From Promethearchaeota archaeon (lineage in GTDB: Archaea; Asgardarchaeota; Lokiarchaeia; Sigyniarchaeales; SOKP01), in NCBI GenBank assembly GCA_016926735.1, contig JAFGOA010000223.1, positions 35,147-99,146 of the forward strand: a stretch of DNA of 64,000 nucleotides. The letters are read 5' to 3'. The notes beneath the pieces are model-generated. The model saw only the letters and a list, made by a program, of their open reading frames with translations, had not been told where the DNA came from and ran no database searches. Of this stretch, positions 1,547 to 42,242 are shown piece by piece. The number at the start of each line of letters is the position of its first letter. The first letter of the stretch is position 1. The position numbers and the translations under genes are program-made.

Positions 1547-2824
1547 TTAAGAAATACTAACCGATTCTAATAAAAATTGTTTATACGAAGTTTGGAACAT
1601 GTCCCTTATTCGCACAGGCTGAAACCAGTAGCCTCTATCGGATAGATCTTGAATAAAACCATCTCCGACTACTTTTCTGAGAATATTTAACGCTCCATTT
1701 ACATCAGCATTAAGAATGTAATTCGAGCCTTTAAATATTCCCCGTTTTATCCTTTTACCAACATAATGTTGATGTTTCTGTATTGGTTCTAAATCTAATG
1801 AACTACATTTTGACGTGTAGGATTCATTGACATCATGAACTTTAATTCCTACAAGGCGAGCTTTATAAGTTATCATTTGTTTAAGCTTTTGAATGGGGAT
1901 ATTCAAAAAATTTTGGTTATTTCGTTTGCCCATTCGAATATTTTGTTTTATATTATCTAATTTACCCAAACAAATGTGTCCTATCTGTTTTTCCAAACAA
2001 TAACCGACAATGAATTGAGCTGTTTTATGCAAATAATCCTTTACAATTGAGTTTCTCCTTATTGTAATCTTATCGAGTCTATCAGTCCACTTTAGTTCTT
2101 GTTTATCCTTAATAGAAAAAAATCTTGCTTTCTGTTTATTCCATTGCCGATTAATTGATTTTAGAATTCTCCCTGAAATAATAATTGGTTTAGTATTCAT
2201 ATTCTCTGCTGTAGTGATTAAATTATTCAATCCAAAATCGATTGATAAATATCTCGTGGTATCTAATTTTGACGTTTCTATTTCTTTTTTATATATTATT
2301 TCAATTTCATAAAATCCTTTTCGTGGCAAAATCCTTATCTGTTGATACTCTCCAAAACGCTTGTTTTTATACGTAGGAATTTTAATTTCAATAGGGTTTT
2401 CAAACTCAGGAAATAGTTCTTTAAAAAGGTGAGACATTGTAAGAACGATTTTATCCTGTTTAATCTTGCTATTCTGGTTAGTAAATATCAAAATGTTGTT
2501 ACAACCTTTCTTGTATTTAGGTGGTCTCGGTCTTCCATTGAATCTTTTCCTATCTTTTTTCCACTCCTTTATAGCATTGAAGAAACTTTTCCAGTTTTTA
2601 TCCAAGACTTTAAGAATTTGTTGAGAGGTTTGAGCTTTTAACAATTTATATTGGCTATATTTTTTCATTATGAAATCTAAATCGTTATATCGAAGCCAAT
2701 TCTCTAGATGAAAGAAATCCTGTCGAATATACCAATTAGCTTGATTATAAAGCTTCTTAGAAATTGAACAGAGCACATCTAAATGCTCAGTTCTCAGAGT
2801 CCTGAATTTATATACTAATTTCAT
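1547..2824 (-). CDS. tnpB: RNA-guided endonuclease TnpB
   Basis: SKKLYNQANW, RPPKYK, RuvC-I SIDFGLNN, VNESYTSKCS, RuvC-III NADVNGALNI. Confidence 0.93.
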   Translation of the reverse strand: MKLVYKFRTLRTEHLDVLCSISKKLYNQANWYIRQDFFHLENWLRYNDLDFIMKKYSQYKLLKAQTSQQILKVLDKNWKSFFNAIKEWKKDRKRFNGRPRPPKYKKGCNNILIFTNQNSKIKQDKIVLTMSHLFKELFPEFENPIEIKIPTYKNKRFGEYQQIRILPRKGFYEIEIIYKKEIETSKLDTTRYLSIDFGLNNLITTAENMNTKPIIISGRILKSINRQWNKQKARFFSIKDKQELKWTDRLDKITIRRNSIVKDYLHKTAQFIVGYCLEKQIGHICLGKLDNIKQNIRMGKRNNQNFLNIPIQKLKQMITYKARLVGIKVHDVNESYTSKCSSLDLEPIQKHQHYVGKRIKRGIFKGSNYILNADVNGALNILRKVVGDGFIQDLSDRGYWFQPVRIRDMFQTSYKQFLLESVSIS

Positions 2825-5412: not shown

Positions 5413-5543
5413 TTATAGTCCTTTAGGGCCATTTTCATATATTTTATATGCTTCATCAACAGATGTATTATCATGAACAATTGCTCTTACAGCTTTGATC
5501 ATACCAATAGGACTATCACTTTGAAAAATATTTCTTTCCATAT
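5413..5543 (-). pseudogene. Displaced second copy of the aldolase last exon ([42 protein letters not shown])
   Basis: Same 131-nt length as exon 3 (6893-7023); 20 differences over the 129 nt from ATG to stop by hand alignment. Confidence 0.9.
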
Positions 5544-5559
5544 ATTCAATTACGATATT

Positions 5560-6708
5560 TTATTTTAATTCTTCAAATTTCTTTCCTTTAAGTTGCTTAT
5601 GCCAATAATGTGGTTTTGGTTTTTTAATATTCCATTTTAAACATATTTCATTAACAATCCTTGGATATACATTATATATTTCACATATTTTTTTAATTGG
5701 CATTTTCCAAACTAATTTTATCAGTTCATCCTTTTGAATGGAGTCTTCAAAAATATTTTTAGATGCAACTCTAAAATATTTCCTCTTTCGCGATAAACTA
5801 TCTGGAAAATTATCTAACATTTCATTAAATAGTTTTCCGCCCAAACTAAAATAATAATTCCCTTTACCATCGGGATTGATTTTATGAGGAATATTAAATC
5901 TTTTTTTTATTTCTTCTAAAATTAATTTACTACCAATATGAAATTGATTAGTCCCTTCTTTTCCATCACCATCAAAAAAACCTAGTAAAAATGCCAGATC
6001 TAATTCTCTATTATCTAAATTAGGAAATCTTGTTCTTTTTTTACTACTTTTTACATAACCTAATGTGTATAGATCACTTTGAACATTAGAATTTTTAAAA
6101 GTAATCCTTACATATGTTCTTAGTTCATTTTTAGTCATTTTTGTTCGATATTTCTTGTATTTAGGATTTAAACCTATCGCTTTACAATACCTATCTATTA
6201 AAATTTCATCATTTTTGCTTAATTCAAGTTTTAATTCTCCTCTTTCTCCTAAATAAACTTCAGCCCACAATATTCCAAGCCAATAAGCTTTATTTTTTGA
6301 ATTAATTTTTTTAAAGTAATTTATATTTAAATCAAGATGATAGTTTAAAACTTTTAGACCTTTTTTTCTAGATATTGGTAATTCTTCATTTGATTCTTGG
6401 TATTTCTTAATAAATTTTAATGTATTCTTCCCACGTAAGCCAAAATAAGCTTTAATATTATTACTCCATTCGTTTAATTCATCTAAAGCAATTTTAAATT
6501 GAGGATTCACTTTAATATTTCTTATAATTCTTTTTATACGTCTTTCATAATCACATAATATAAGACTTAATTTTTTATAAGATAAACTTCCATTATGAAT
6601 TATTTTAACTTTAAAACCATTAATAAATAAGGTGGATGATACAATCTTAAAAATCTCGTTTCTTAAATCTTTTATTAATTCTGATGCAGAATAAGTAAGT
6701 CTTCTCAT
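5560..6708 (-). CDS. LAGLIDADG-family homing endonuclease-like protein (free-standing)
   Basis: Two LAGLIDADG-type helices, KAYWLGILWAEVY (degenerate) and LAFLLGFFDGDG; very basic; C-terminal HTH-like segment. Confidence 0.8.
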   Translation of the reverse strand: MRRLTYSASELIKDLRNEIFKIVSSTLFINGFKVKIIHNGSLSYKKLSLILCDYERRIKRIIRNIKVNPQFKIALDELNEWSNNIKAYFGLRGKNTLKFIKKYQESNEELPISRKKGLKVLNYHLDLNINYFKKINSKNKAYWLGILWAEVYLGERGELKLELSKNDEILIDRYCKAIGLNPKYKKYRTKMTKNELRTYVRITFKNSNVQSDLYTLGYVKSSKKRTRFPNLDNRELDLAFLLGFFDGDGKEGTNQFHIGSKLILEEIKKRFNIPHKINPDGKGNYYFSLGGKLFNEMLDNFPDSLSRKRKYFRVASKNIFEDSIQKDELIKLVWKMPIKKICEIYNVYPRIVNEICLKWNIKKPKPHYWHKQLKGKKFEELK

Positions 6709-6892
6709 TCCTCAATTATTTTGTTGTGTTTATTTCTGGTCTTTTTTCTATTTTTATCTAATTGAATTACTTCTCTAGTTTAAAGAATCTTTATTGATTT
6801 ATATGGTTTTTATTAATATATATTTTAATAGAGTCTGCAGATTTTTTTAAATAAAATATTTATATTATAACAAGAAAAAAAAAATAAAAAAA

Positions 6893-7737
6893 TTAAAGTC
6901 CTTTTGGACCGTTTTCATATATGCTATATGCTTCATCAATAGACTTATTCTCATGAACTATAGCTCTTACTGCTTTAATCATGCCAATAGGGCTGTCACT
7001 TTGGAATATATTTCTTCCCATATTTGCGCCTATAATTATAAAAAATAGTTATAGTCTACGCCGACAGCTCCTTTATCAATAGCATTCCTTGCCATAATTA
7101 AAGCATCACGCTCCTCAATCTTCTTTCCACCAGCTATTACAACCGGTACTGGAGCGATAGAAGTGACTTCGTCGAAGTTCTCACAATAATATGTTTTTAC
7201 AAAAGTGGCACCTATTTCTGCTGCCATTCTACTTGCCATACCCAAATATCTTGCATCTCTAACCATTTCCCGTCCAACTGCTGTTACTGCTAAGACTGGA
7301 ATACCATAATCTTGTCCCCAATTTACAATCTTAGTTAAATTCATTAAAGATTGTTTTTCAAATTCACCACCTACAAAGATGGAACAGGTAATTGCTGAAA
7401 CATTTAATCTTATCGCATCTTCAATTGTAACATTTATTTCTTCATTTGAAAGTTCTTTTAACATACTTGCTCCGGCAGATACTCTTAGAACGATAGGTAC
7501 ATCAAAATCCGGTGAAACACAATTTCGAAGCATACCTCGTGTTAACATTAAAGCATCAGCATATTCAAAAAGGGGTTCTAACTTCTTAAAAGATTTTAAC
7601 ATTCCTGGGATATTGCCAAAATATTCATGAGTATGTATTAATTATACATATTTTCCATGATCGACAGCAAGCATGACGCAATGCCCAGATTTAGGTTTAA
7701 TTATTCGGGATAATCTATTTTGCATTCCCCAATCCAT
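6893..7737 (-). CDS. lsrF: LsrF/DhnA-type class I aldolase/thiolase in three exons (7737-7654, 7623-7056, 7023-6893), 260 aa after splicing
   Basis: Exon 1 [13 protein letters not shown]...MLAVDHG; exon 2 YFG...ATFVKTYY...VVIAGGKK...GAVGV; exon 3 [24 protein letters not shown]; 84+568+131=783 nt, in frame. Confidence 0.88.
7024..7055 (-). other. Candidate 32-nt BHB intron 2 of the aldolase gene
   Basis: mRNA GCGU-AG^A-CUAUAACUAU UUUUU AUAAUUAUAG-GCGC-AA^A; splicing gives GGC GUA GAU AUG GGA (GVDMG). Confidence 0.85.
7624..7653 (-). other. Candidate 30-nt BHB intron 1 of the aldolase gene
   Basis: mRNA CAUG-GA^A-AA UAUGUAU AAUUA AUACAUA CU-CAUG-AA^U; splicing gives GAU CAU GGA UAU UUU (DHGYF); contains an in-frame UAA. 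Confidence 0.85.
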
Positions 7738-7862
7738 AGTTTTATCACTTATTTCTTATAATAATTTTATTTTGATATCGTAATAAGTAATGAAATTATT
7801 ATAAATTTTAAGTTTAATAGCTAAAATAAGATATTTTAAAAATTTGTATTAAATATTGTTTT

Positions 7863-8126
7863 TTATTTCAATTCTGTTGTTTTGGTTGCCAAAATAAGAT
7901 CTATTTTTTCATATCCTCTAATTATACCCTTTTGATCGATAAATACAACGAATTGATGATCAGAACAGACAATCCCTGCAGGAACATGTATTTTAACACA
8001 GCCAGATTCTTTTTTTGAAAAAATTTCTGTTGGAATTTTAACTATTTTATCAATTCCGCAAGTTGGACAAGATATATTGAACTCTCTCATGATTGATTCT
8101 AATTTCTTATAATTAATATTTAACAT
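7863..8126 (-). CDS. Small putative zinc-binding protein
   Basis: CPTC ... CSDH ligand pattern. Confidence 0.6.
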   Translation of the reverse strand: MLNINYKKLESIMREFNISCPTCGIDKIVKIPTEIFSKKESGCVKIHVPAGIVCSDHQFVVFIDQKGIIRGYEKIDLILATKTTELK

Positions 8127-8216
8127 TTTTTCTTACTTAGATATATTAAATACTGAGAAGTCAAATAAAAATGTTCACTTTTCCTATGAAATAAAGGAAA
8201 AAAAATTAAAAAAAAA

Positions 8217-35994: not shown

Positions 35995-36393
35995 TTAAGG
36001 AGATAATATCTGAACTAATGACCATATTTCCATAAACATAAAGAAACCAAGAGGAATCATAAAAACCAAGAAAATGAATATAGATTTTCCAATTCCCACT
36101 TCATACAAAATATTTACTAGATTAATATTTATAAAAATCGCTAAAAATAATACTGGAAACATCTCTGGAGGAGGACCCTCATCATTAAATGCTCCAGAAA
36201 ATCCTGCTAATATTATTGGAATTGAACATAACATTACTACACCAACTTGCAGTCCAATACTTATTAGAATCCATTTTATATCTGTTCTTTTTTCTGCTTT
36301 AGTTATTTTCAAACATATCTTTAAAACAATAATTCCTAAAATTACAAATAAAATTGGTGCTACGCTTGCTATTATAATTGGTTCTTCATCCAT
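35995..36393 (-). CDS. Small membrane protein
   Basis: Four hydrophobic segments. Confidence 0.6.
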   Translation of the reverse strand: MDEEPIIIASVAPILFVILGIIVLKICLKITKAEKRTDIKWILISIGLQVGVVMLCSIPIILAGFSGAFNDEGPPPEMFPVLFLAIFININLVNILYEVGIGKSIFIFLVFMIPLGFFMFMEIWSLVQILSP

Positions 36394-36577: not shown

Positions 36578-38539
36578 ATGGAAAAAAAAGAAAACAAAGA
36601 TATACGGAGTTTTGTTGTTGTCTGTCGATGTGGTATTAACATTTCAGAAATAATCGATTGTCCTTCCCTAGTTGAATTCTCTAAAAAATTACCTACTGTT
36701 GTTGATGCTGATGAATATATTAGTATTTGTACTGAACCAGGTGCAGAATTTATAAAAAAAAAAATGACAGAAGCTAATGCCAATAGATTGATTGTTGTTG
36801 CTTGTACCCCTAAAACTCATGAACCTGTGTTTAAAACTGTTCTTGAGTCGATGAATTTAGATCCTTCTTATCTTGAATTTGCAAATATAAGAGAACATAG
36901 TAGTTTTGTTCATAGAAATGATATTGAAGGTGCTCAAAAAGTAGCTAAAGATATAGTTAAATCTGCTGTTGCAAGAGCATCCTTGTTAGAACCTATTAAA
37001 ATAAAAGAAGTAGATATCACCAAAGAAGTTTTAATACTTGGTGGAGGTGTTTCAGGGTTAACTTGTGCAATAGATCTAGCTGAAGAAGGGTATATAGTAC
37101 ATCTAGTTGAAAAATCTCCTACAATTGGAGGTAAGATGGCTCAATTAGATAGAACGTTTCCAACTGATGATTGTTCAATCTGAATTTTAGGACCAGTAAT
37201 GTTACAAGCAGCGAGAACCAAAGGACTAAATATATACACATATAGTGAATTAGAGAACGCTAATGGATTTGTCGGGAATTTTGATGTAAAAATCAGAAAA
37301 AGAGCAAGATTTGTAACAAATGATTGTAATGGATGTGGTGCTTGTGAACCTGTTTGCCCTGCAATTAGTTCAAATGAATTTAATGAAGGATTAAATCCAA
37401 GATCAGCAATTTATACAGCATTTGCTCAAGCAGTACCCTCTATCGCACAAATTGATATGACAAAATGTATAAAATGTGGTCTATGTCAAAAAGCATGTGA
37501 ACTAAATGCTATAGATTTTGATCAAAAAGATGAAATTCAAGAGATAAAAGTAGGAGCAATTGTCGTAGCTACTGGTTGGGATGAATATATACCTCCTATT
37601 GGAATGTTAGGATTTAATATATATCCTAATGTTATTACTCAAATGAAATTAGAGAGAATTCTTGCCCCAAATGGTCCTACAATCGGACATTTAGCAAGAC
37701 CTTCTGATGGAAAAACACCAAAAAAAATCTTATTCATTCAGTGTGTTGGTTCACGAGATTTAAATAAAAATACTTATTGTAGCTCAGGAGTATGTTGTAT
37801 GATTTCAATAAAAAATACAAAGCTTATTAAACAACATTATCCTGATTGCGAAATAACCGTAGCATATATGGATATTCGTGCAGCAGGAAAAGATTATGAA
37901 GAGTATTTTACAGCATCTAGAAAGGAAGGGATAAGATATATCAGAACTAATATTAGTAAGATAGAAGAAAATCTTGAAAATCACAATTTAATCATTAAAA
38001 TGCAAAATACTCTCAGAGATTCTAAGAAATTTCAGGAAAATGAATTTGAAATGGTTGTACTTTCTTGTGCTATGACTCCCCCTAGAGGAATAAAAAAAAT
38101 ACAAACCTTACTAAAATTAGAGACAAGCAGAGATGGCTTTTTCAAAGAATTTCATGCAAGATTGAATCCAATTGATACAAAAATACCTGGAATTATTCTT
38201 GCAGGGGTTAGTCAAGGTCCTAAATCTATAGCTGAATCGATATCTCAAGGAAGAGCCGCAGCCTCATCCGCAGCTCGATTAATGAGTAAGGATAAATTTA
38301 GAATTGCTCTAATTAGAGCAAAAGTAGATAAAGAAAAATGTGCTAAATGCGGTTTATGTGAATTTAATTGCCCTTATAATGCTATTACTTTGAAAGATGA
38401 TGGCGCAGATGTTGATGAAATTTTATGTAGAGGATGTGGTTCATGTTTAGCTAATTGTCCATCAGAAGCAATAAGTTTAAGATATTATAAAGAGAATCAG
38501 TATGAAAAACAAATAGATGCGATTCTTGAGAATACATAG
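36578..38539 (+). CDS. hdrA: Heterodisulfide reductase subunit A-like selenoprotein (Sec at TGA 37181-37183), 653 aa
   Basis: Two track ORFs are in the same frame across one TGA in TFPTDDCSI-U-ILGP, a conserved Cys position; GGGVSG FAD motif; ferredoxin motifs. Confidence 0.93.
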
Positions 38540-38547
38540 AGAGGTTG

Positions 38548-39024
38548 ATGATTATTACAAAATCAGATTTAAAAATTATTAGCTTTATGTGTTGGAAATG
38601 AGGATATGGTGCTGGAGATATGGCAGGAACAATTCGTGCTCAATATCCCGCTACAATCAGACCTATTCGAATTAATTGTACTGGAAGAGTCACTCCAAGT
38701 TTAATGATGCGTACATTAGGAAAAGGTGCTGATGGAATTATAGTAGCTGGATGATATCCTGGAGAATGTGATTTTGAAACAGGTAATCTTGTTGCTGAAA
38801 AAAATGTTCAATATGTAAGAGAAATTTTGAAAACAATTGGACTCTCCGAAGAACGAGTACACATGTTTAATTGTAGTGCAGCAGAAGGACAGAGATTTCA
38901 AGAGGAGATTACTAGAATTTCTGAAATAATTGAGACACTTGGCAACAACCCTTTTAAAGAATCTAATACATTAAAAAAAGTATCTGATTCTAAAGAAGGA
39001 AAAAAAATAAACCGAATTGAATGA
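38548..39024 (+). CDS. mvhD: MvhD/VhuD hydrogenase delta subunit with two Sec (TGA 38599, TGA 38752), 158 aa
   Basis: Hand translation: FMCWK-U-GYGAGD...RINCTGRV...GADGIIVAG-U-YPGEC...CSAAEG. Confidence 0.92.
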
Positions 39025-40673: not shown

Positions 40674-42242
40674 ATGAGATTAATAGTAAAAAAAATAAAT
40701 TTTGAAACTGGTAATATGAAAGACGTTGTGCTTAACCATAATGATGCTGAAAAAATAGGACAAAAAGTTGGAGAACGTGTTATTATTCAAAATATAAATA
40801 CTAAAAACTTAAGTGAAAAATATTGGGTTGCTATATTAAAAATTTCATATTCAGATTCTATAGTAGCTCCAGGAGAAATAGGAATTTTTGCTGACACATT
40901 TAAAGATATAAAAAATTTAAAAGAAAATTCCAAAGTCTCAGTTTTAGCTGCTGAAGCACCTACATCATATAAAAATATCCAAAAAAAAATTAAAGGTTTT
41001 AAACTTAATTCTGATGAAATTCATAGTATTATAAAGGATGCAGTATCTGGGAAATTGTCACAAATAGAAATTGCATCATTTATTACTGGTATTTCTATTA
41101 ATAATATGGATTCTGATGAAATGACAGCATTAACATTAGCAGAAGGTAACAGTGGAAGAAAATTTGATTTTGGTCCGGAAGTCTATGACAAACATAGTAC
41201 ATAAAATTGCACTCTGTAATTTTAGCTAAAAGGTGGAGTTCCGGGTAATAAAGTAACACTTATAATCGTTCCAATAATTGCAGCTGCAGGATTAATTATT
41301 CCGAAAACAAGTACTCGTGCTATAACATCTCCTTCAGGTACAGCCGATTCAATGGAGGTTCTAGCGCCAATCTCTTTTAATTCAGAAGAAGTAAAAGAAT
41401 TTATCTCAAAAAGAGGAGCATGTATTATTTGGGGAGGTGCTTTAGATATAGCACCTGCAGATAATGTTTTTATAGAAGTTGAACGTCCACTTCATTTTGA
41501 TCCTATGGGTTTAATGATACCTTCAATTTTAGCTAAAAAACTTAGTATGGGTGTAAAAAACCTAGTATTAGATGTACCTATTGGTAAAGGAACAAAATTT
41601 CCTACACTTAAAGATGGACAAAATTTTGCTCTCATATTCAATCAAATTGCCAAAAATATTGGTATTCATAGTGAGTGTGCTTTAACCTTAGCTCATCAAC
41701 CTGTGGGTCACTGTGTTGGACCGGCAATTGAAGCTCAAGAAGCAATTTCTCTTCTGAGGGACTATAAAGTAGGACCTAATTCTTTAATAGAAAAATCAAC
41801 TTCATTAGCAGGTATTCTTTTAGAGATGGCAGGAAAAGCTAAAAATGGAGAAGGACAATTATTAGCTAAAGATATCTTAAAATCAGGGAAAGCTTATACA
41901 AAAATGAAAGAAATTATTGAAATGCAAGGTGGTAATCCTAATATTTTGCCAGAAGATATAGAATTAGGTCCATATAAACTTGATATCTATGCTCAAAAAT
42001 CAGGTCATATCACTCAAGTGGATAATGCTTTAATTAATCAAATTGCAAAAGCAGCAGGCTGCCCCTATTCTAAAACTTCAGGAGTTAGAATTTATAAAAA
42101 ACAAGGTGCTAAAATAAATAAAGGTGATATTATTTTTACAATCTATTCTAATACTGAAAATAAGTTAAAAAGAGCTGAAAAATTATACAATAGTTCTGGA
42201 GGGCCTATTATATTAGGAGGAATGCTCATAGAACGTATTTAA
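40674..42242 (+). CDS. deoA: AMP phosphorylase (thymidine phosphorylase family) in two exons (40674-41200, 41231-42242), 512 aa after splicing
   Basis: DKHST|GGVPGNK, PKTSTRAITSPSGTADSMEVL, SILAKKL; both track ORFs share one frame, interrupted by a 30-nt insertion with three stops. Confidence 0.92.
41201..41230 (+). other. Candidate 30-nt BHB intron in AMP phosphorylase
   Basis: UAGU-AC^A-UAAAAUUGC ACUCU GUAAUUUUA-GCUA-AA^A; splicing gives CAU AGU ACA GGU GGA (HSTGG). Confidence 0.87.

Follow-up and report, generated by a model that had tools for sequence, protein, structure and literature searches.

The AMP phosphorylase gene of this Promethearchaeota archaeon is returned by gene callers as two pieces of 176 aa and 296 aa, and public protein collections list it as two separate predictions of these lengths. 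In the window, by which we mean the whole 64,000-nt stretch of DNA analysed, there is a single AMP phosphorylase gene at 40674-42242 on the + strand, split by an insert of 30 nt at 41201-41230. Comparative analysis indicates that this insert is very probably a protein-spliced archaeal intron, cut from the AMP phosphorylase mRNA by the tRNA-splicing endonuclease EndA. The parts of the locus are as follows.

40674..41200, + strand: exon 1, residues 1-175 and two bases of Thr176 (TIGR03327 positions 2-165)
41195..41198, + strand: exon strand of the 4-bp central helix, formed by the last base of the His codon and the Ser codon (UAGU; 100% of cells paired in 34 copies)
41199..41201, + strand: 5' 3-nt bulge ACA, with the predicted cut at 41200/41201 (from the fold, and the cut rule in PMC2738675)
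41201..41230, + strand: predicted 30-nt intron with three in-frame stops (from frame restoration, relatives and shuffles)
41202..41224, + strand: intron hairpin, with a 9-bp stem (41202-41210 / 41216-41224) and a loop (41211-41215); 97.4% of stem cells paired, two-sided change in 8/9 pairs
41225..41228, + strand: intron strand of the central helix, GCUA (from covariation and the consensus fold)
41229..41231, + strand: 3' unpaired AAA, a loop-type site without an adjacent outer stem, with the predicted cut at 41230/41231
41231..42242, + strand: exon 2, the last base of Thr176, then GGVPGNK to the stop (TIGR03327 positions 167-500)

Removal of the insert leaves an open frame of 512 aa without an internal stop. 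With the stops read through, the gene scores 563.6 bits against TIGR03327, above the curated cut-off of 535, and covers positions 2-500 of this profile. The gene is single-copy in the genome, the closest solved structures for an intron-less orthologue are 4GA4-4GA6, and the neighbouring genes encode a TPR/SNAP-like protein and an ATP-dependent DNA ligase, in agreement with the initial annotation of this DNA, which had seen no mobile gene nearby. The same annotation had placed the insertion in a phosphate-binding loop, in the motif DKHST-GG, of which the KHS residues presumably bind phosphate, as in thymidine phosphorylase. The motif is correct, but the insert does not lie between the Thr and Gly codons as was proposed; it is inside the Thr codon, between AC and A. 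The three in-frame stops (TAA 41202, TAA 41217 and TAG 41223), the 9-bp inner stem, the helix UAGU:GCUA and the triplets ACA and AAA are all present as that annotation had described them. A 30-nt excision was tried in 27 registers, and DKHSTGG is restored in only two of these, 41201 and 41202, which give the same product. According to passages of PMC2738675, EndA cleaves each bulge behind its second base. Applied to the two unpaired triplets here, this rule would remove exactly 41201-41230, and the cuts so predicted coincide with the borders expected from intron-less homologues.

Same-site inserts were present in 36 of 400 genomes of the Asgard phylum, including the window genome, all from one family and distributed over 10 genera, as detected with a gapped pattern that requires the flanking codons and so misses inserts in more diverged flanks. 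By match length the insert is 30 nt in 31 of these genomes, 31 nt in three and 29 nt in two; as lengths of 29, 30 and 31 nt all occur, removal cannot depend on frame. Further copies of 29-30 nt are carried by four metagenome contigs. A contig of another DNA run reaches into the insert with a variant of its sequence; the best-matching DNA run, which may be that of the source sample, yielded no piece spanning it. Presence of the insert in 35 other genomes and in the four metagenome contigs rules out an assembly artefact. In the relatives both exons are open and full-length, encoding 506-546 aa where the locus is complete. One or more in-frame stops occur in each of the 34 distinct inserts, and every insert either stops or shifts the unspliced frame. 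A continuous, intron-less form of the gene occurs in 85 of the 135 genomes of the family, among them close sisters of carriers and most close relatives of the window genome; 15 of the 135 matched neither the intron-bearing nor the intron-less pattern. We note that one relative, G222, has both an intron-bearing and an intron-less AMP phosphorylase gene (L181 and L182) on different contigs with similar gene order, and that these two forms may reflect contamination of this genome (9%).

Conservation of pairing rather than of sequence characterises the insert. When 34 of the 36 genomic copies are aligned, 98.2% of 442 cells are paired and 10 of 13 pairs show two-sided change, in 47 cells, counts that refer to sequences and not to events, kin not being independent. 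None of 500 shuffles scored as high, controls slid along the alignment were 29-49% paired, and RNAalifold recovered the same 13 pairs unprompted. The variants of 29 and 31 nt differ in the hairpin loop, and both loop and stem are free to vary in sequence while pairing is kept. This extends into the exon: in nine copies the silent third position of the His codon has changed from U to C together with a change of A to G in the intron, a switch from a U-A to a C-G pair. The Ser codon is AGY at all 36 intron loci considered (33 genomic, three metagenomic) versus 13 of 33 intron-less loci (Fisher p 5e-9, a value overstated since kin are not independent). Together with the exact restoration of the frame, this conserved pairing supports the reading as an intron first put forward in the initial annotation.

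The fold also indicates what kind of intron this is likely to be. Only three of 500,000 shuffled inserts combined an in-register helix with a stem of at least 9 bp. When 71 nt are folded the motif is not the minimum-energy form (z -1.25), and when 108 nt are folded it is present, with a displaced exon-exon stem that leaves an 8x4 internal loop (z -2.91). The 4-bp exon-intron central helix with its 3-nt bulge, a defining feature of archaeal BHB-type introns, is present. The outer exon helix at the second bulge that completes the canonical hBHBh' form is not, and an outer exon stem is likewise absent from the 33-sequence consensus fold, in line with the weak outer stem and relaxed type that had been proposed. 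Because the outer exon helix is not conserved, the insert is best described as a predicted substrate of the relaxed HBh'/BHL type, not a canonical BHB. No Rfam family, a group I or group II ribozyme core included, was matched at E up to 1 between window positions 36000 and 43000, and the insert is only 30 nt long. It belongs neither to the canonical hBHBh' introns nor to the ribozyme or endonuclease-encoding ones.

A relaxed motif had led the initial annotation to predict an EndA of broad specificity, and the subunit type is consistent with this. The genome encodes two EndA genes, one of which aligns to the α subunit of Aeropyrum pernix over the catalytic Y/H/K residues as well as the K-P-R loop, while the other, by inspection, is without the catalytic His/Tyr/Lys pattern. 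The host enzyme is of the (αβ)2 kind with a broad-specificity (L1/CSL) loop, the type able to cut relaxed motifs. Residues of the K-P-R loop have been tied to broad EndA specificity in the sections of PMC12397907 consulted, and the relevant part of PMC5829648 describes Asgard EndA as (αβ)2 with an L1 loop, a type that removes non-canonical introns. The ligase RtcB was present in all 63 relatives tested, including both of those from the same genus. No rtcB gene was found in the assembly of the window genome (99.3% complete), most likely an assembly gap. Judged from its sequence, the AMP phosphorylase intron has the testable defining features of a relaxed BHB intron, RtcB being the uncertain one. 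No RNA data set was listed as containing the gene. Two sets of metatranscriptome contigs, from the same study as the genome, contained no contig over the AMP phosphorylase insert or over an insert in an EF-2 paralogue (below), and these sets are neutral with regard to splicing.

We propose that in the pre-mRNA the 4-bp helix would pair the His-Ser codons with the 3' end of the intron, presenting a 3-nt bulge, a 9-bp hairpin and a 3' site in a loop. The (αβ)2 EndA would cleave both unpaired triplets between their second and third bases, and RtcB would rejoin the exons and restore the Thr codon. An unspliced message would end at the first intron codon, and the spliced mRNA would encode the 512-aa enzyme for an AMP salvage route to form III RuBisCO. 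As a RuBisCO gene and an R15P-isomerase-like gene (below its family cut-off) are intact elsewhere in the genome, such a route, known from Thermococcus, is plausible in this host.

Other explanations for the expression of the gene would leave much of these data unaccounted for. Translational bypass, in which the ribosome hops from the Thr codon over the stop and hairpin without any splicing, as in phage T4 gene 60, would be consistent with the stop after the Thr codon and the hairpin after that stop in the window genome, and with the presence of at least one in-frame stop in all 34 distinct inserts. However, many relatives have no stop directly after the Thr codon, a matching Thr codon ahead of GG is lacking in most copies, and the 4-bp exon-intron helix, which is 100% paired with compensation, has no explanation under bypass; we consider it very improbable. 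It is equally improbable that the gene is naturally split with halves made separately, or is a dead pseudogene. The separate 176-aa and 296-aa pieces in public collections are as such a reading would predict, but the first ATG, GTG or TTG of exon 2 is at 41352, so that a second ORF starting 40 codons past the insert would lose 40 conserved residues, GGVPGNK to ITSPSGTADS. In addition, both exons are intact over 10 genera, the covariation points to structural selection on the insert, and the gene is continuous in most close relatives. Splicing by EndA is thus the preferred reading, and within it a separate question is whether the intron is a tolerated passenger or a regulatory switch that ties AMP salvage to the activity of EndA and RtcB. 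Since every insert stops or shifts the unspliced frame, splicing efficiency would set the level of the enzyme, and the intron has been kept across 10 genera. Such a switch is nevertheless unlikely, given that the intron is missing from 85 of the 135 genomes of the family, close sisters of carriers among them, that loop and stem vary freely in sequence as long as pairing is kept, and that the insert-bearing host genes of this genome have no common pathway.

These host genes came from a wider search of the genome. A first census of inserts gave 301 candidates and was too noisy; two scans for structure and frame then gave 226 candidates (of which 60 were listed) and 31 rows. Eight accepted inserts of the same build and of 30-32 nt, that in AMP phosphorylase included, lie in seven genes, and this is a lower bound since the scans miss long inserts and inserts without stops. 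The host genes given for these eight inserts encode AMP phosphorylase, an aldolase-family protein (two inserts), NadE, an EF-2 paralogue, an E1/ThiF-like protein, IorB and a TFS-like protein. One candidate, C167, was rejected as joining two unrelated genes; comparison with profiles covered this candidate and the accepted rows. Positions of the inserts outside AMP phosphorylase and nadE are listed here.

Window 7624..7653, - strand: 30-nt insert in the aldolase-family gene, after DHG (NF006081 positions 30-59, then 62-250 from residue 2)
Window 7024..7055, - strand: 32-nt insert in the same aldolase-family gene (NF006081 to position 250, then 252-288)
L140:932-962: mini-intron in the EF-2 paralogue
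L138:2044-2073: mini-intron in the E1/ThiF-like gene
L139:1027-1056: mini-intron in iorB
L232:1381-1410: mini-intron in the TFS-like gene

Profile positions continue across the insert in nadE (143/144), the EF-2 paralogue (15/17), the aldolase gene and iorB; in the E1-like and TFS-like genes the profile matches on one side of the insert only. The two aldolase inserts are likely to be those that the initial annotation called the other two. As in AMP phosphorylase, a conserved motif is the context of the insert in the EF-2 paralogue (the P-loop) and in the E1/ThiF-like gene (GxGxxG). Among the 135 family genomes, inserts recur at the same site in nadE in six, in the EF-2 paralogue in five and in the E1-like gene in nine, and across its carriers the EF-2 paralogue insert measures 30, 31 or 32 nt. 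A second EF-2 paralogue, on C138, is continuous, and a second E1/ThiF-like gene at about 7223-8170 (-) of C237 gives two separate matches, interrupted near 7800. Some interruptions in the window are of another kind. In-frame TGA codons at window positions 37181-37183, 38599-38601 and 38753-38755 (+) fall at Cys-like positions of hdrA, whose halves match NF040770 at 4-192 and 201-643, and of the small gene that follows it. These breaks were rejected as introns, there being no insert; the codons probably specify selenocysteine, which is known for Lokiarchaeia. A 425-aa ORF at window 1547-2824 (-) has a TnpB/IS605-type look on inspection, and ARAGORN found no tRNA in the 64,000-nt window.

It is likely that the AMP phosphorylase intron is old in the family and mostly inherited with its gene, with repeated and precise loss or regain. 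On a protein tree of 65 loci, 34 of them with the intron, from which partial sequences under 400 aa and most intron-less members of the second-largest genus were left out, the intron requires 14 changes, at least six of them forced by strong branches, and a single intron clade is rejected (p-AU 1.6e-30, on a 63-row tree with two long branches removed). Intron similarity tracks host-protein similarity (rho 0.43, 0/2000 permutations), as would be expected if the intron is old and has been lost precisely, although regain by transfer is possible. The description of a settled minimal intron holds for the genus but not for the family. Orthologues with a larger, endonuclease-containing intron at the same site, which the initial annotation had suggested looking for, were not found: over 92 loci, with up to 1400 nt allowed, inserts were of 0 or 29-31 nt only, no longer intron was present among 30 genomes chosen mostly for low or broken scores, and none of four metagenome matches of the 3'-splice-site pattern had an internal endonuclease ORF. 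The stops flagged in G285 and G288 proved to be outside the gene. Third-position identity between intron-bearing pairs is 0.47 near the site versus 0.45 far from it, giving no clear co-conversion tract. Position in a conserved motif, cited in the initial annotation as the pattern of homing-derived elements, fits homing and equally fits selection against imprecise loss.

Free-standing endonucleases may nonetheless have had a role in intron spread. The intron could even now be spreading by collaborative homing, in which a free-standing HNH endonuclease would cut alleles that lack it, in the way that F-CphI acts for the psbA intron, which has no ORF. The patchiness of the gene tree, with its 14 changes and no single clade, is in keeping with this, as is a 446-aa HNH ORF (phrog_2255, E 3e-28) about 60 nt upstream of the intron-bearing gene in one relative, G180; a homologue of this ORF (30% identity) is tail-to-tail with the intron-bearing nadE of the window genome, and a LAGLIDADG-like ORF lies behind the intron-bearing aldolase gene.

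Window 5560..6708, - strand: free-standing LAGLIDADG-like endonuclease ORF behind the aldolase gene (PF14528 E 0.011, under the cut-off; phrog_4645 endonuclease E 2e-25), 34 kb from the AMP phosphorylase intron

Against this, an endonuclease is a neighbour at only one of 19 intron loci with about 4 kb of flanks, and HNH adjacency, read by eye, occurs in one of 36 carriers versus none of 85 intron-less genomes (p 0.30), so that the homing-derived origin put forward in the initial annotation is only partly supported, by the patchy tree and the G180 neighbour but not by a significant association. The HNH family is present in 61 of 135 family genomes (with only 13 candidates scored per genome), and no convincing mini-intron lies beside 29 of its 30 best loci, for which reason a general link of this family to mini-introns was rejected as a rule. 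Neither four other nadE-intron genomes (five loci) nor eight other E1-intron loci have an endonuclease within 1.5 kb, intron similarity follows that of the host protein, and the co-conversion tract is not clear. We regard spread by such homing as possible but rather unlikely, and favour an old intron passed on mostly with its gene. Some further arrangements around these ORFs were observed. Members of the HNH family (L176:1725-3062 in G180; L199-L228) are multi-HNH, winged-helix-ended proteins inserted beside many conserved genes; the G180 member has no Pfam match, and L210 contains a duplicate of the end of the adjacent gene. Window 5413-7755 (-) contains the aldolase gene with its two mini-introns, the LAGLIDADG-like ORF and, near 5420-5545, a second copy of the gene end. 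At L137:187-2541 (C143) a stranded 5' half of nadE ending at GYFTKY is followed by the intron-bearing nadE and the convergent HNH-like ORF, an arrangement that looks like a gene-replacement cassette.

The closest known system is the BHB intron in cbf5 pre-mRNA of Desulfurococcales and Sulfolobales, for which passages of Yokobori 2009 (PMC2738675) describe splicing shown by cDNA, in contrast to the splicing of AMP phosphorylase, which we infer from sequence. As described there, both are short coding-region inserts bordered by a relaxed BHB, with cut sites (predicted ones in AMP phosphorylase) that follow the second nucleotide of each bulge, an (αβ)2 EndA in the host, a variable interior and lineage-specific absence. 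Unlike the cbf5 intron, that of AMP phosphorylase is in an Asgard host and in a metabolic rather than an RNA-modifying enzyme, is nearly fixed at 29-31 nt, and is far patchier (14 changes versus about two losses for cbf5); the window genome moreover has at least eight such inserts in seven genes. The BHB intron of HVO_1309 in Haloferax volcanii is likewise an mRNA substrate of the splicing endonuclease, but according to the sections of PMC7714728 and PMC10485636 consulted it lies in the 5' UTR, is cut by a homodimeric enzyme and interrupts no reading frame. Non-canonical tRNA introns of Asgard archaea share lineage group, motif and enzyme with the inserts described here, with repeated gains and an arrival route left open in the parts of bioRxiv 10.64898/2026.10.13.758758 and PMC11291895 searched; these introns are in tRNA genes and not in protein-coding sequence, the passages searched contain no protein-coding introns, and the preprint (10.64898/2026.10.13.758758) uses neither 'mRNA' nor 'cbf5' in them. 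Collaborative homing of F-CphI and psbA, as set out in part of PMC3984707, also involves an ORF-less intron in a conserved motif, and here too an endonuclease gene adjoins the host gene in one relative and two other intron genes in this genome. The psbA element is a group I intron, in contrast to the AMP phosphorylase intron, which is not a ribozyme and for which the putative endonuclease link is rare. One archaeal mRNA is counted as spliced by EndA in a paper of 2020 (PMC7714728) and two in a review of 2023 (PMC10485636), with only cbf5 interrupted within the coding region. In the literature we searched, which did not extend to subscription journals or preprint supplements, cbf5 was the only coding-region case, and none was reported from an Asgard archaeon. 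The AMP phosphorylase intron is thus a predicted further case of a kind with one published coding-region example, and one that is strongly supported by comparison across dozens of Asgard genomes.

If the intron is spliced as predicted, mRNA splicing would be an everyday need in this Asgard lineage. Metabolic reconstructions are affected, as AMP phosphorylase is listed as two fragments, and nadE, the EF-2 paralogue and the E1-like gene are broken likewise. The alleles of 29, 30 and 31 nt and the intron-less sisters provide ready substrates for studying EndA specificity and the arrival and departure of introns. A broader and more tentative proposal is that Loki-type Asgard archaea carry out routine mRNA splicing with the tRNA machinery, and that hairpin introns of about 30 nt in active-site codons of many housekeeping genes hide these genes from annotation and spread as ORF-less partners of free-standing HNH and LAGLIDADG endonucleases. 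If true, this would provide the route, missing so far, by which introns arrive in Asgard archaea, and would offer a living model of how introns can invade protein genes without a spliceosome, in the organisms most closely related to eukaryotes.
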